Shown one piece after another: positions 993 through 54,289 of a DNA stretch of 64,000 nucleotides (within the stretch, counting starts at the first letter, position 1; the number at the start of each line of letters is the position of its first letter). This stretch comes from Eledone cirrhosa (Eukaryota): positions 11,718,001 to 11,782,000 of the forward strand of contig OZ024758.1 of NCBI GenBank assembly GCA_964016885.1. Reading direction: 5' to 3'. A model generated the notes under the pieces. The model was not told the origin of the DNA. It worked only from the letters and a program-made list of their open reading frames with translations, and searched no databases. The position numbers were made by a program, and so were the translations under genes.

Positions 993-1469
993 TAAAGTTA
1001 TATTTAAAATTGTTGGGTTACAACTAGTAAATATTTATAACTGATATAAAAGCACTCGACAAATATTTGGAGTATATTTACAATATTAAATAAATGGAAA
1101 ACTATATTTATAAAACCATATTTATTTCATTATATATATTTCGGGGATATCATATTAACAATATGCTATGCCTTCATCAGACAAAATACAATATAAACAG
1201 TTTTATAGATAAATATATTCGACATACCGTAATAAACATCAACTTCATTTGAAGAGGTTTACGCTAGCAGTAAACCTCTGCTAGCGTAAACCTCTTCAAA
1301 TGAAGTTGATGTTTATTACGGTATGTCGAATATATTTATCTATAAAACTGTTTATATTGTATTTTGTCTGATGAAGGCATAGCATATTGTTAATATGATA
1401 TCCCCGAAATATATATAATGAAATAAATATGGTTTTATAAATATAGTTTTCCATTTATTTAATATTGTA
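993..1469. mobile_element. Foldback Penelope-like pLTR remnant: 192-bp arms (1079-1270 / 1278-1469) plus a unique left tail
   Basis: Arms are reverse complements with a 7-nt spacer TAAACCT. Each arm carries a hammerhead fold, both ends abut (TA)n, and AGCACTC lies at 1051. Confidence 0.85.
1360..1425 (+). ncRNA. Type I hammerhead ribozyme motif (mirror copy on - strand at 1123-1188)
   Basis: TATTTTGT-CTGATGA-A-GGCATAGCATATT(GTT)AATATGATATCCCC-GAAA-TATATATA-ATGAAATA. Stems I and II pair, stem III is palindromic, the AUA triplet ends at 1417, and AATAAA follows. Confidence 0.8.
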
Positions 1470-2898
1470 TATACATATATATATATACATACACGGCTAC
1501 CTCCATATTCCTTCAATGTCATTGTTTATCGTTTAATTTTAGTTATTCTTGTTGCAAACCTTAGGTAATTTAATAGATATTTATTAAATACATTTCTGTA
1601 TCATCTGAAAACTGACAAAACATTAAGTAAGTCAACTTTTTTAGTCTACTGAGAGACATAACATATTTTTGTTATATATTAAATCATAGTTTCAAACGTT
1701 GATTACGATGTCCTCAAATATTCAGGTCTATTCTTTCTCTCTCGAAAAAAAATATACTAATGGTAACAAACGACTGTTTATAATGAGAATAAACTGTAAA
1801 TAAACAAATATATATATACATTTAAATTAGTGACAGTCAGACGATATGGCGAGCGAGAGGCAGACGAATGAAACCAAAGAGGAATTGAATCATATTAAAA
1901 GTTTAAATAAAATAAGTATATTCACTCACTCACAACAAAAGACCAATAGACCAAAACATAAAATAATTACTATATATCTAAAACTGACAATAATTACACC
2001 CATGTTAAAAGAAAAAAATATTTAGAAGTTAATTAAAAGATGCAACAAAAATAAATTAATAAAATCAAAGAATGTTCAGAGGAAAAGTAAAGCAAACAAA
2101 ACAAAAAATAATCATCTGTTCAAAGAGATCGGACAATTGGCTAGTTAACTCATTTTCAACAAATTAAATGAGAGTTGTGCCAACTTTCAGCTTGCCAATA
2201 TACGAGGAGAAATTTCATATTATATTGTAAATAAATAGTGTGAAGAAATATATGAAAATTGTGTGTAATTTTGTGCGATTTAAAGCAAAGTTTCTCACAG
2301 TTTCCTTGTACTAAATTTTGCCAACGATTCATTATTTATTCGTCACTGGAATGATATGTTAAAATGTGTTGAGTAATAGCATAGAGCTGCAAAACCGATG
2401 GTCGCTTGACAAACTTCTCTATCAATTACACACACACACGCCCGCGCGCACACACACACACACACACATGTATATATATAGGGCACTGAAGGCGACCGCA
2501 ATTAAATTAAGGAAGGCAGGGAACTCAATATGATTTCATTTAGAAGTGATCTTTCCTGAACCCATTTTGTTTACATCGGTCATGAATTATATATGATTAT
2601 ATATGTATATATATATATATATATATATATATATATATATATATATATATATATATATATATATAGAGAGAGAGAGAGAGAGAGAGAGAGGAATACACCG
2701 CAAGGTTATATTCGTAGTAATTAGAGCACTCAATCCATAGGACGAGTTCGGTATAAAGTTGGTTCCACAAGTTAGCAAACCATCCCCGGGAACGCACGTT
2801 TCACCCAACTGATTCTTAACACGAATGAGTTTGTGTATATATATATATATATGAGTCCCCAGTGTCCGCGCATTGCCTGGAGACTTAGCTGAGAATAG

Positions 2899-2980
2899 AC
2901 TCCCTGATGACGTAATGAATTCTCGACGGTTATATTACGTAACTGTCTTTATCCCATTACAGAAGCTAATTAGTTGGAGT
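2899..2980 (+). ncRNA. Hammerhead motif (GAAG variant) in TA-flanked island 2853-3046
   Basis: ACTCC-CTGATGA-C-GTAATG...CATTAC-A-GAAG-CTAATTAG-TT-GGAGT; homologous to 6397-6479 with compensatory changes. Confidence 0.7.
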
Positions 2981-3616
2981 GAAAATTTTAGTAAGTAAGT
3001 TAATTTTTTAAATTTTTTTTTAAATTTTCTTATTTTACGTCTTTCATATATATATATATATATATATATATATATATATATATATATATATATATATATA
3101 TATATATATATATATATACGGGGTAACAAATAATAGTTAAATGCAGTCCACTTAGGTATAGTCCAGTTATGGTATTCCAGGTAGGGGATGATATCAACGC
3201 TTGGCTTGGTTTGACTCAACAAGGCGTTTCCATAGTGATGCTGCGGGTATGCTGTAATTCCTATGTTGTAAACACTTGGAGTAATAATAAATCAGGATAA
3301 AAATACATAAGTTTCATGAAGCAATTTATGACATTTTATGAGATTTTCAAGTGTTTCAACAAAACATAAACATAAAATGTGTTAGTGAGAAAAATTTCAT
3401 GAAGCTGTGTTATATTATGTTAGCAATAAAATTCTATGTTAAGATCGGAGCATAAAATCCATCACATTACCTTAACACTTGTATCGCCAAAGATTTTAAA
3501 TGGTTGAAAAATTGTAGGGAAAGATCTACCGGTGAAGAAAATCAAAACAAGATAATACATTGAAGCATCAGAAAAAGTTATCATGTTCTTGATATATATA
3601 TATATATATATATATT

Positions 3617-3769
3617 CTAAGGCGGGTAAAATTCCCGAGATCCATGGACGAGTTCTCTCCAGCGATCTCTGTCCCTCATTATCGCTGCCATGTCCCGCGT
3701 CTCCAACAGACCAGTGTCTGTCCTTAGGGCATCAACATACGTTAACCTTGGTCTTCCTCTTCTAGTGTG
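3617..3769 (-). mobile_element. 3' end of a non-LTR retrotransposon ORF (RTE-like C-terminus), 5'-truncated, within (TA)n
   Basis: Minus frame translates [50 protein letters not shown]. The RRGRP...DR..WR pattern is typical of LINE RT C-termini. Confidence 0.75.
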
Positions 3770-4509
3770 TATATATATATATATATATATATGTATATAT
3801 CAAGAACATGGAAACAATTGTAAAACTGTAAATAAATATCCTTGTTTCTACTGTCGACCATGTTATTCTTCACTTTTATATATATATATATATATATTAT
3901 ATATATATATATATATATATATATATATATATATATATATATATATATATAAATATAAATTTATCGAGAATCGCATTTCGGTGGGTAGAAATTAGCGAAA
4001 CGCAACTTCCGTATTGTGCAGACAAGCGCTCCATGGATATGAAGATACCAGAGCTATAAACATAAGTTAAAATGGTCATACAAACTAAGACGATGGTGAA
4101 GAAGCCATTAACCACTTTAGCCAAAAAAGCGAACAAGCTAAACGGTTCAAACAAAATAAGATATGATTGAAATAGTTACCCGGACCCTCGGGGAAGATGG
4201 AATACTCCGATATTGGGTTTCTGCAATACCTAAATCAATAATACTGTCTGCTTATAAAGAATAAGCTTTTGGTATAATGATCGAACAAGGCATCGCTTTC
4301 TCAACAGGCATTTTGTTCTTCGTGGGCCAGAATTTCACAGGTTATGAAAGCACATGTGAGATTCTAAGGGGAGAAAACCCCTATTTTGGCCAGTGAATTT
4401 AGCATATATATATATATTGGGGCAACATGTATGAAATTTGAAGAAATTTATAAAAAGAAAATAAATTCCTACAAACATCATAATTGACGACCCAATATAT
4501 ATATATACA

Positions 4510-4901
4510 ATAATTATTTCTACTTTTGGCACAAGGCCAGTTATTATATCAGTGCATTACTGGTACTTTATTTCATCGACCCCGTAAAGACGAAAGGCAG
4601 AGTTAACCTCGGCGGGATTTGAACTCATACCATAAAGGGCCGTAACTCTTTGCTGCAAAGCATGGTGTCCGACCCTCTACTGACACTGCCAACCCACTGC
4701 CCTTATATATACAATAATTGTTTCTATTTTAGGCACAAGGCCAGCAATTACTCAGTACATTACTGGTACTTTATTTTATCGACGCCGTAAGGATGAAATG
4801 CAAAGTCAACCTCGGCGGGATTTGAACTCAGATCGTAAAGGGACGTAACTATGCTGGAAAGCATGGCGTCCGACCCTCTACCGATACTGCCAATCCACCG
4901 C
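4510..4901 (-). mobile_element. Two tandem copies of the tRNA-derived SINE-1 (4510-4702, 4714-4901)
   Basis: On - strand: A-box TGGCAGTRTCRG, B-box GAGTTCAAATCC, core GCCTTTCATCCTTACGGGGTCGATAAAATAAAGTACCAG, AT-rich tail. Confidence 0.9.
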
Positions 4902-52666: not shown

Positions 52667-52932
52667 AATTGTTTCTACTTTAGGCACAAGGCCAGCAATT
52701 ACCCAGTGCATTACTGGTACTTTATTTAGTTAATTAGTTAATATAACGGTGGATTGTCAGTATCCATAGAGGGTGGGACGCCATGCTTTCCAGTAGAGTT
52801 ACGTCCCTTTATGATCTGAGTTTAAATCCCGCCGAGGTTAACTTTGCCTTTCACCCTTACGGGGTCGATAACATTAAGTACCAGTAATGCACTGGAAATT
52901 GCTGGCATTGTGCCTAAAGTAGAAACAATTAT
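52667..52932. mobile_element. SINE-1 (52747-52932 +) preceded by an inverted copy of its own 3' end (52667-52727)
   Basis: Matches SINE-1. Confidence 0.85.
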
Positions 52933-52984
52933 AACTAATTATACTTAACTCGTCATATGGACTGAGTACACGTACCCTTGGATA

Positions 52985-53787
52985 TTGCGGGTACAGGCGA
53001 TGCGTGGGTTCTGTATGTTGCGTGCGTGTTTTTTTTGTTCGTTTTTTTGTGTGTAGATGCTTGTATTTGCATACCCATGGCGAGTGTTTTCGCGTATGCT
53101 TGTGTATGTACGTATATGGATGCGTGTATGTATATATATTTAATTTCAATTACCTCTGTATTTTATTTACTTTATTCTTAACTCTGAAGCCGAGAATCTT
53201 TCGGTTTCCTAAATAGAATTTTAGTCTACGACCTAAGTTATACCATTTACGTGGTCTTGTCTTTGCGTGTAATTGTTCTCATTGTCCACATAATGACGTA
53301 TTATCTTCGTTTTTTTCGTTCATTGCCAGAGAACGTCTCTATGTACCACTTAATAGAATATTAGTCTACGACTTCATTATTTGGTGCGATGAAAACAATT
53401 ACACGCAAAGACAAAACCACGTTTATGCTATAAATGAAGTCGTAGACTAATATTCTATTAAGTGGTACACGTGGAAACGTTCCCTGGCAAAGAACGGGAA
53501 AGAAACGAAGATATTACGTCATTATTTGATGCGATGAAAACAATTACACGCAAAGACAAAACCACGTTTATGCTATAAATGACGTAATATCTTCGTTTCT
53601 TTCCCGTTCTTTGCCAGGGAACGTTTCCACGAACCAAAGTATCGTCTTCCTGTTTTCCTTCGGTTGAAACGTTTTTTGAAATATTTTCTTCTGCGTTCAC
53701 AGATTGACTTTTTTAGTTTCAGAACATCCCGTTAAGGGTGAAAGCAGCGATTCTTTGCTTATACTTTAATCTGTTATTTTAATAAAT
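52985..53787 (+). mobile_element. Family A copy in opposite orientation with an internal inversion/duplication (~53375-53580)
   Basis: Reverse complement of 45058-45500 and 46440-47010. Confidence 0.8.
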
Positions 53788-53886
53788 ATATATATATATG
53801 TATATATATATATATATATATATATATATATAAAATAAAATAATTAATTCAAATATTTAAAATGTGGCTTCATTTATTAAAGGTGT

Positions 53887-53940
53887 ACTGCTATATATAT
53901 TTCTTTGAAGCCTTCCTTGGCTGTGACCTCTTCAGGCAGT
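53887..53940 (-). ncRNA. Hammerhead motif in foldback island 53833-54225
   Basis: ACTGC-CTGAAGA-GGTCACAGCC(AAGGAA)GGCTTCAAA-GAAA-TATATATA-GCAGT; related to 42402-42459, but the base of stem II is weakened. Confidence 0.68.
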
Positions 53941-54289
53941 CCGAATTGGTGTGGTAGAGACGGGTACACATGCTGTTGAAGTGTTTAACTCCGTCATTAC
54001 TGCAATATGCCCAGTTCCTGGTTGGGTTGTTATTTCTCTGAGGAACTGGAAATATATATAGCAGTACACCTTTAATATACGAAGCCAAATTTTAAATATT
54101 TGACTTAATTATTTTATATTACTCCGGAGTAATCAAACCAATCTGCGCACTTCGTCGAGTGCTCCAATCTGCATACTGAGGTGTCAGTAAACAACTAACC
54201 CGGGTAATAATATATTACCCGGGTTCGGATCGGATCTAACTGTCGAAAGGGTCGGAGCTCAGCCGTCGGGGGTCCTGATTCTTTTCATA

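Follow-up and report, generated by a model that had tools for sequence, protein, structure and literature searches.

A bulged, covarying hairpin at the ends of Hydra-like Penelope elements in Eledone cirrhosa and its putative role in placing reverse transcription

Background

The closest described systems to the sequences reported here include two kinds of Penelope-like element (PLE). Elements of the Hydra clade, which are PLEs with a C-terminal endonuclease (EN+), insert into (TA)n, and a type I hammerhead is located close to their 3' end (Craig et al. 2021, PMC8557442). The second system is PAc, of the Poseidon clade, which has two 3' ends, one on either side of an optional extension that follows the hammerhead (Frangieh et al. 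2024, PMC11167929). In this one in vitro study, the PAc reverse transcriptase (RT) initiates inside the RNA at two sites flanking the tail, and it needs RNA located 3' of these sites. Initiation does not require hammerhead cleavage, and the study defines no signal for the two sites. Here we analyze a stretch of 64 kb from the octopus Eledone cirrhosa (contig OZ024758.1, positions 11,718,001 to 11,782,000; hereafter, the window), in which an earlier note had described a GAGTRCT box close to microsatellite junctions. We find that the box is one strand of a bulged hairpin. This hairpin is a real cis element in the RNA of a PLE clade already known, likely one that has not been described before, and we propose that it may position the start of reverse transcription.

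The window is AT-rich, animal-like DNA (29% GC), and 167 microsatellite tracts split it into 129 islands. Many islands contain head-to-head inverted pairs with a minimal hammerhead and arms of unequal length, and they thereby match the anatomy of 5'-truncated PLEs with an optional tail (PMC8557442). Palindromes detected by self-blast (Table 1) exhibit the EN+ trait of 5'-truncated copies joined head to head to an inverted copy, and the optional tail is present as short and long ends in 10 families. Whole cores of the minimal type I hammerhead are found in families A, M, B, I, N and F, while families H, J, O, P, G and Q retain none. One trait does not fit: the tail of EN+ PLEs is 30-40 bp long, and the distance here from the start of the hairpin's helix to the junction is roughly 60-140 nt. 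The PAc tail, at 30-40 nt, is located inside the open reading frame (ORF), starts in an AC-rich stem-loop and lacks GAGYRCU (PMC11167929, Fig. S1 text), whereas the tail in the window is non-coding and linked to a covarying, two-copy motif.

The conserved box is one strand of a hairpin

The earlier note listed 18 positions of the box, and all 18 bear GAGTRCY or its reverse complement, exactly or within 1 nt. Among 51,643 non-microsatellite bases, GAGTRCY occurs 26 times, compared with 11.2+/-3.5 in 100 dinucleotide shuffles (maximum 22), and YYGAGTRCT occurs 12 times, compared with 1.8 (maximum 8). The claimed positional enrichment is borne out within the window: a tract begins 20-95 nt downstream, in reading direction, for 13 of the 26 GAGTRCY sites, where 1.8+/-1.5 are expected (maximum 7 in 200 shuffles). 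The upstream count is 6 of 26, versus 1.9 (maximum 8). For the individual sites, the claim that the box reads toward an adjacent microsatellite stands in most cases. Twelve of the 18 lie 25-90 nt before a masked tract, and three more (20249, 25214 and 54157) meet a short TA run at 45-46 nt. It fails for 13029 and 16597, which adjoin no tract, and for 23262, which was taken on the wrong strand (the motif there is GCTC..GAGCACT, on the minus strand); the strand of 43361 is ambiguous. Eight additional GAGTRCY sites in the window have no tail context.

The note further stated that the carriers are unrelated. The 18 sites in fact represent 13 families, as judged by self-blast and by eye (the same-family pairs are 1051/25678, 2724/23025, 13029/16597, 20242/54157 and 43159/49472). 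Nevertheless, the 14 families that we recognize in the window have no cross-family blastn match with E<1e-3 over 210 nt, so the sites do not stem from a single recent family. The box was also said to lie downstream of a hammerhead and of AATAAA. A whole hammerhead core occurs at most 190 nt upstream on the same strand at three clear sites of the 18 (1051, 25678 and 28576), and 7 further sites keep only the GAAA half, according to a pattern tuned by eye. The hairpin is placed behind the hammerhead and on its strand. The AATAAA part is not supported, since just 6 of the 18 sites have AATAAA or ATTAAA in the 110 nt before the box; where it occurs in families A and N, this signal overlaps the 3' strand of hammerhead helix I, as read from the sequence.

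The box corresponds to the 3' strand, plus the adjoining unpaired flank, of a hairpin of the form RCUC-[upper stem]-UN bulge-GAGY-RCU. This hairpin consists of a 4-bp lower helix (RCUC/GAGY), a 2-nt bulge on the 3' side that begins with U, a variable upper stem and then RCU. An exact ACTC is found at most 70 nt upstream of the box at 16 of the 18 sites, versus 56 of 261 other GAGT occurrences, and downstream of it at 2 of 18. The CTCTGCT that had been observed before some boxes is the hairpin's own 5' strand. We dropped a coding explanation of the box, as the spacers occupy all three frames.

We analyzed covariation in 19 copies, one per family or motif, comprising the 14 window families and five from elements of other animals. 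Each of the lower-helix variants GAGC, GGGT, GGGC and GTGC is accompanied by a matching change on the 5' side. Eleven copies have A-U as the outer pair and 7 have G-C, the first upper pair is U-A in 10 and C-G in 5, and the second upper pair is formed in 18 of 19 copies, using 5 pair types. It is important to consider that the 5' partner was chosen by match and that the bulge size was fixed after the data had been seen, so that the counts for the lower helix are to some extent predetermined. This bias does not apply to the upper stem: 46 of 57 cells are paired, compared with 30.3+/-2.7 after shuffling, and none of 10,000 shuffles scored as high. On the sense strand, G-U pairs outnumber A-C by 5 to 1 (small numbers), and the upper stem of family K is closed by a C(UUCG)G loop; both features point to the sense RNA as the form that folds.

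A strict descriptor of the hairpin, drawn up after inspection of the data, has 11 matches in the window, versus 0.54+/-0.76 in 200 shuffles. A loose descriptor is no better than shuffles over the whole window (40 versus 32); near tracts, it has 14 matches versus 5 (maximum 11 in 40 shuffles). A loose pattern yielded only noise in two bacterial genomes. RNAalifold predicts no structure from a plain MAFFT alignment of 16 copies. Six rows of this alignment are out of register, and the structure named above pairs only 72.6% of its cells. A model-fitted alignment pairs 92% of cells, a figure that is biased toward the structure and includes chance matches. Because folding stability is also unremarkable (see below), the case for the hairpin rests on covariation. 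In reads of family F, 9 variable positions are listed for 54110-54199, and none coincides with the 25 positions of stem, bulge and RCT (by hand count, about 0.045; 40 of 68 rows listed), which we do not count as evidence.

Element ends keep a register with the helix

Short ends were located by local alignment of short copies, selected from self-blast, to a long copy. Family D was excluded because we had chosen its anchor by eye and its copies do not conserve it. In 18 copies from 10 families, the last homologous base lies between -7 and +1 relative to the helix start, and in 7 of the 18 it lies at -5. Since the loop between the two strands of the hairpin varies from 7 to 52 nt, this register follows the helix start and not the box. 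Two published consensus junctions have similar positions, if the 3' end and the 5' start are contiguous: -2 in Hydra-1_Ajap, and -6, before hairpin 2, in Hydra-1_Crog.

Long ends lie 34-46 nt past the box in 9 of 14 families. This distance is near the spacing of 35-48 nt between successive hairpins in other elements, less about 5 nt. Reads from 4 of the 7 runs listed were mapped to 53990-54285 (raw counts of 5,575 and 4,971). They reveal a single common long end of family F, and the reads in which it joins (TA)n number 748 and 658. Family C is carried onward into its ACTC by about 1,280 reads per run.

The hairpin in Hydra-clade elements of other animals

By eye, the hairpin is clear in 4 of the 6 Hydra-clade consensus sequences of Craig et al. 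(PMC8557442, File S7), whose hosts are a coral, a sea cucumber and a copepod. It is found at the 3' ends of Hydra-2_Amil and Hydra-2_Ajap, in two copies within the 5' untranslated region (5'UTR) of Hydra-1_Ajap, and in Hydra-1_Crog at the 3' end with one mismatch and at the 5' end as GCCC/GGGC. The hairpin is thus contained in the paper's own sequences, but the text available to us, with Files S1, S2 and S7, makes no mention of it or of its duplication. Six 9-mers compared with the whole supplement of this paper gave 7 matches, 4 in Hydra ends and 3 in Naiad or Chlamys coding regions. The earlier note knew of no description of the box, and we likewise found none of the hairpin in full-text searches; subscription papers, Repbase entries, figures and preprint supplements were outside this scope.

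A scan of prokaryote assemblies with a Hydra RT motif recovered stray animal elements. Two of these (L143 and L141) each have a hammerhead, then two hairpins 39 nt apart, then an ATG 22 and 32 nt later, respectively. The second hairpin of L141 is GCAC/GTGC, a further compensatory change. A third element (L193) has one hairpin behind its hammerhead, and two more (L150 and L142) are uninformative, as their sequences end before any hairpin. In three complete 5'UTRs, hairpin 2 starts 35, 39 and 39 nt after hairpin 1 and lies 22-32 nt ahead of the ATG, and the spacing in Hydra-1_Crog is 48 nt if its two ends are joined. The hairpin is on the ORF strand in the Hydra consensus ends and in L143, L141 and L193, so the polarity of hammerhead and ORF places GAGYRCU on the sense strand. 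The records in which these five elements occur are two bacterial metagenome-assembled genomes, with one element in a 491-kb contig; host contamination or misassembly is the likely explanation.

A covariance model built exclusively from five non-window Hydra copies has 16 matches with E<=10 in the window. Its top 10 are all tail hairpins: seven sites listed earlier, two other copies of family C and one new site (family Q, Table 1). Neptune-like PLEs (L001-L079) also have a hammerhead, located behind an ORF for RT and GIY-YIG endonuclease. However, none of 21 Neptune-like tails fits the strict descriptor, and the model's best E value over 15 of these loci (96 kb) is 0.37. These loci were called Neptune-like from an RT motif and not from a tree. 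Five of them (L020, L043, L045, L054 and L077), on long contigs of one assembly, form 4-kb tandem arrays, with (CCCTAG)n-type repeats at the end of each unit. Viral contigs yielded no PLE (two matches, L139, which is a phage-like chance match, and L185), 150 relatives of G001 contained no Hydra element, and a metagenome scan with a Neptune-type motif, which was not aimed at Hydra, obtained the outgroup and no Hydra loci.

The hairpin, the (TA)n target and the hammerhead style together suggest that the window copies likely belong to the Hydra clade. The proteins of this clade are marked by RWK, DKT, a CxCX5C linker and an endonuclease without CCHH, and the window retains no protein-coding part. 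Most long ends join (TA)n, the exceptions being family O at (CA)n and one copy of family H at (CT)n. Hydra hammerheads in File S2 (PMC8557442) have the style ctgaNgat..tgaa, with variants that have U..U at the base of helix II and a helix III of the ACAG, ACC or ACTC type. By eye, families I, M and B fit the U..U form and families I, K and L fit helix III, while families A, F and N have a TATATA-type helix III that is not seen in File S2. Naiad-clade traits (no canonical hammerhead, N-terminal endonuclease) do not fit, given hammerheads in six carrier families. The window copies are mostly ACUC/GAGU, and the published Hydra copies GCUC/GAGC. As a separate observation, helix III of the File S2 hammerheads is often ACTC-N-GAGT, the same four pairs as the lower helix of the tail hairpin, and family F has ACTC-CG-GAGT at the 5' side of its hairpin.

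A putative start signal and its alternatives

We propose that the hairpin is a docking site in the RNA, that RT starts just 5' of it, and that two hairpins give two starts and hence the optional tail. From the comparisons above, we consider this rather probable. A transcript of tandem units would carry both hairpins. The RT-endonuclease would bind one of them and nick a (TA)n tract, and complementary DNA (cDNA) would be primed where the template is A/U-rich, roughly 5 nt to the 5' side of the helix, leaving the bound hairpin uncopied. A start at hairpin 1 would yield a short end without the box. A start at hairpin 2 would yield a long end that retains hairpin 1 and the spacer; these would form the optional tail and put the box at a distance of 34-80 nt from the junction. 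Tail-only islands could then be copies begun at hairpin 2 and truncated after 90-160 nt. In a stronger version, the hairpin of Hydra-clade elements would be conserved in at least four animal phyla, duplicated in the 5'UTR and used as a ruler to position the telomerase-like RT some 5 nt upstream, such that its number and spacing alone set both starts and the tail. We regard the chances of this version as evenly balanced. Of the functions suggested in the earlier note for a shared cis signal of PLE ends, RT recognition is thus the best reading, with the covarying bulged hairpin as its unit in place of the 7-nt box.

Other small structured RNAs are known to fix where RT starts or ends, such as hepadnavirus epsilon, the 3' stem-loops of long and short interspersed elements (LINEs and SINEs) and the template-boundary helix of telomerase. 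In epsilon the bulge itself is the template, LINE stem-loops are 5' of the start and are copied, and the telomerase boundary helix stops synthesis. In contrast, the helix here would, under our proposal, sit 3' of the start and be absent from the cDNA. We claim no sequence relation to any of these.

Several observations weigh against this proposal. No remnant of Hydra RT or endonuclease coding sequence was found in the window (a profile of 60 proteins, best E 2; tblastn; Pfam, none of 142 ORFs above the cut-off). In every island, truncation lies behind the single ORF that in EN+ PLEs encodes a telomerase-like RT and GIY-YIG endonuclease. The window also has no tandem junction, and hairpin 2 was never observed in this genome. 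The short-end pairs and 5' partners were hand-picked, and chance A/T matches to the tract blur the ends and push some values up. Four families have long ends 59-80 nt past the box, family K has no TA junction, and one of its copies ends at the box. The 3' copy of L141 diverges from its 5' copy about 35 nt before hairpin 1. Long ends of family F and Hydra-2_Amil finish in ACTCAA and ACTCTAT, respectively; if this terminal ACTC is the 5' strand of hairpin 2, the register would be displaced by about 10 nt. In the reads, the short end is absent from the 24 of 360 loose-end rows listed. As to the structure, families G, J, M and H lack an upper stem with the 2-nt bulge (the bulge of H is 1 nt), folding stability gives z-scores of only -0.35 to -2.24 in 10 regions, and family F folds otherwise. 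Finally, Hydra-1_Amil and Hydra-1_Obim, 2 of the 6 published consensus sequences, have only weak forms of the hairpin, and the covariance model missed 11 of the 18 earlier-listed sites at E<=10.

It is unlikely, in our estimation, that the hairpins instead serve translation or stability of the 5'UTR left uncapped by hammerhead cleavage, whether by recruiting ribosomes, by resisting decay or by binding the element's own protein in a feedback, with the placement at junctions as a by-product. The last hairpin is 22-40 nt before the ATG in L143, L141, Hydra-1_Ajap and Hydra-1_Crog, which would suit such functions. However, they do not predict a short-end register of -7 to +1 in 10 families with loops of 7-52 nt.

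We see a small chance that the hairpin guides an RNA cut at or just 5' of its base, and that RT starts at the resulting 3' end and not internally. The ends do cluster at the helix base, short copies exclude the hairpin, and a stem followed by RCC or RCU at the 3' side is reminiscent of RNase P substrates. However, the stem is short and not tRNA-like, most ends stop 2-7 nt short of the helix, and PAc initiates internally on uncut RNA (PMC11167929).

Equally doubtful is a signal at the DNA level, in which a double-stranded site or a cDNA hairpin would be recognized by the GIY-YIG endonuclease during tandem formation or resolution of an intermediate. The Drosophila virilis tail is needed for endonuclease recognition (cited in PMC11167929), and Craig et al. 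attribute the tail to endonuclease resolution (PMC8557442). However, the variable spacer, the fixed one-sided bulge, the excess of G-U over A-C (small numbers) and the loop of family K speak for sense RNA.

The remaining suggestions of the earlier note, a core promoter element or a splice donor of the pseudo long terminal repeat, are largely refuted, and we consider them very improbable. PLE 5'UTRs can contain an intron overlapping an internal promoter (PMC8557442), and GGTRAGT occurs just past the box in family G. However, GTRAG is near only 1 of the 18 sites, the GAGC and GTGC variants shift or abolish GT, and compensatory variants alter the box while keeping the pairs. No support was found for a core promoter. 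It is scarcely credible that the sites are chance 7-mers among many TA tracts or one recent family: about 11 GAGTRCY are expected by chance and 8 have no tail context, but the positional excess, the covariation, the lack of cross-family similarity and the occurrence in elements of other phyla refute chance for most sites, and it likely holds for a few (43361 on the minus strand, 23262 on the plus strand).

Sites and other features of the window

Table 1. Hairpins, boxes and associated features, in window coordinates
Feature	Position	Strand	Remarks
Hairpin, family A (ACTC/GAGT, TC bulge, GCT)	1051..1073	-	Long end after 59 nt
Minimal hammerhead upstream of hairpin A	1139..1180	-	
Inverted hammerhead copy, family A	1368-1409	+	Arm stops at short end near 1473
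Hairpin, family H (1-nt bulge variant)	2725..2747	-	Tail-only island
Hairpin, family P (GCTC/GAGC, TG bulge, GCT)	4025..4054	-	Absent from earlier list
Hairpin, family I	5391..5412	+	Inverted arm 5271-5330 has hammerhead core, stops at short end
Box with distant ACTC, family J	10184..10236	-	Poor upper stem; tail-only island
Hairpin, family B (GCTC/GAGC, TC bulge, CCT)	12185..12233	+	Absent from earlier list
Further hairpin, family B	12498-12546	+	
Further hairpin, family B	46383-46431	-	
Hairpin, family C, one mismatch (GATT)	12729..12755	+	
Hairpin, family K (C(UUCG)G loop, one lower mismatch)	13013..13035	+	No TA junction
Hairpin, family K, second copy	16581..16603	+	Homology stops at box
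Hairpin, family F (6-bp upper stem, TT bulge)	20243..20285	-	
Hairpin, family H, second copy (1-nt bulge)	23026..23048	-	
Hairpin, family L (GCTC/GAGC, TA bulge, ACT)	23263..23286	-	Top match of model built without window sequence
Box, ACTC 7 nt upstream, family G	25203..25220	+	No upper stem; then GGTAAGT
Decayed hairpin, family A, second copy	25662..25684	+	Behind hammerhead 25557-25593
Box with ACTC partner(s), family M	28577..28639	-	Behind hammerhead 28708-28749; upper stem unclear
Hairpin, family N (TG bulge)	34422..34450	-	
Hairpin, family O (TA bulge)	35254..35281	+	Long end joins (CA)n
Hairpin, family C	43160..43186	-	
Earlier-listed 43361	43330..43426	ambiguous	Minus: no bulged hairpin; plus: possible GCTT/GAGC helix
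Hairpin, family C, GCTC/GGGT (two G-U pairs)	45756..45782	-	Absent from earlier list
Hairpin, family C	49452..49478	+	Inverted arm ends 5 nt before hairpin
Hairpin, family Q (GCTC/GAGC, 5-bp upper stem, TT bulge, TAT)	50799..50835	+	Found by covariance model; inverted arm 50313-50450 ends 5 nt before hairpin
Hairpin, family F	54121..54163	+	In reads of other copies, (TA)n joined about 46 nt past box
Candidate hairpin (ACTC/GAGA, 6-bp upper stem, TG bulge, ACT)	62330..62396	-	68 nt before tract; loose descriptor only
Tail-only islands	2691-2835, 10145-10237, 22991-23145		
Palindromes (self-blast), examples	1075-1473, 5271-5385, 25377-25656, 28647-28967, 49336-49446		

Some further features of these families are of interest in their own right. 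The high-copy family B hammerhead, at 46480-46503 (minus strand), 12426-12449 (plus strand) and in other copies, has CAGAAGA/TTGAAGA as its core, a complete helix III and a helix II with U..U at its base; it is atypical and perhaps inactive. In family G, the splice-donor consensus GGTRAGT follows the box by 2 nt in both copies, at 25223-25229 (plus strand) and about 51790-51796 (minus strand), and it may possibly mark a 5'UTR intron. Family D (9032-9904 and 48381-48897) has a long tail with TC-GAGG-CTT about 70 nt from its end and a long end that finishes in ACTCTC. Its motif is possibly a divergent form of the hairpin.

Other islands (28087-28372, 22390-22613, 30644-30804 and 61772-62175) are PLE-like, with inverted arms and tails of 36-50 nt, lack the RCUC/GAGY hairpin and likely belong to other clades. 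A SINE-like repeat of 190 nt, often head-to-head, is present in more than 10 copies (4508-4901, 39107-39499, 56474-56999, 61141-61485 and others). Among the best 150 of 353 Rfam rows, there is no hammerhead and no family match at any box, and only a tRNA at 19776-19846 reaches its threshold. This match (42 bits, with an 81% copy at 8032-8203) is likely the head of a tRNA-derived SINE.

Implications

A covarying motif at a near-fixed distance from genomic ends offers a direct handle on the internal start of PLEs and on their optional tail. This is relevant beyond these elements, as PLE RTs are the closest retroelement relatives of telomerase. The hairpin is also a short marker with which coding-free fragments in microsatellite-rich animal genomes can be classified, and it lets one ask which non-autonomous RNAs are mobilized by PLE enzymes. 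If the hairpin does act as a ruler, it would be the first defined start signal of a PLE, one that lies 3' of the start and is excluded from the cDNA, and it might serve as a portable tag by which any RNA could become a template for targeted insertion at (TA)n.

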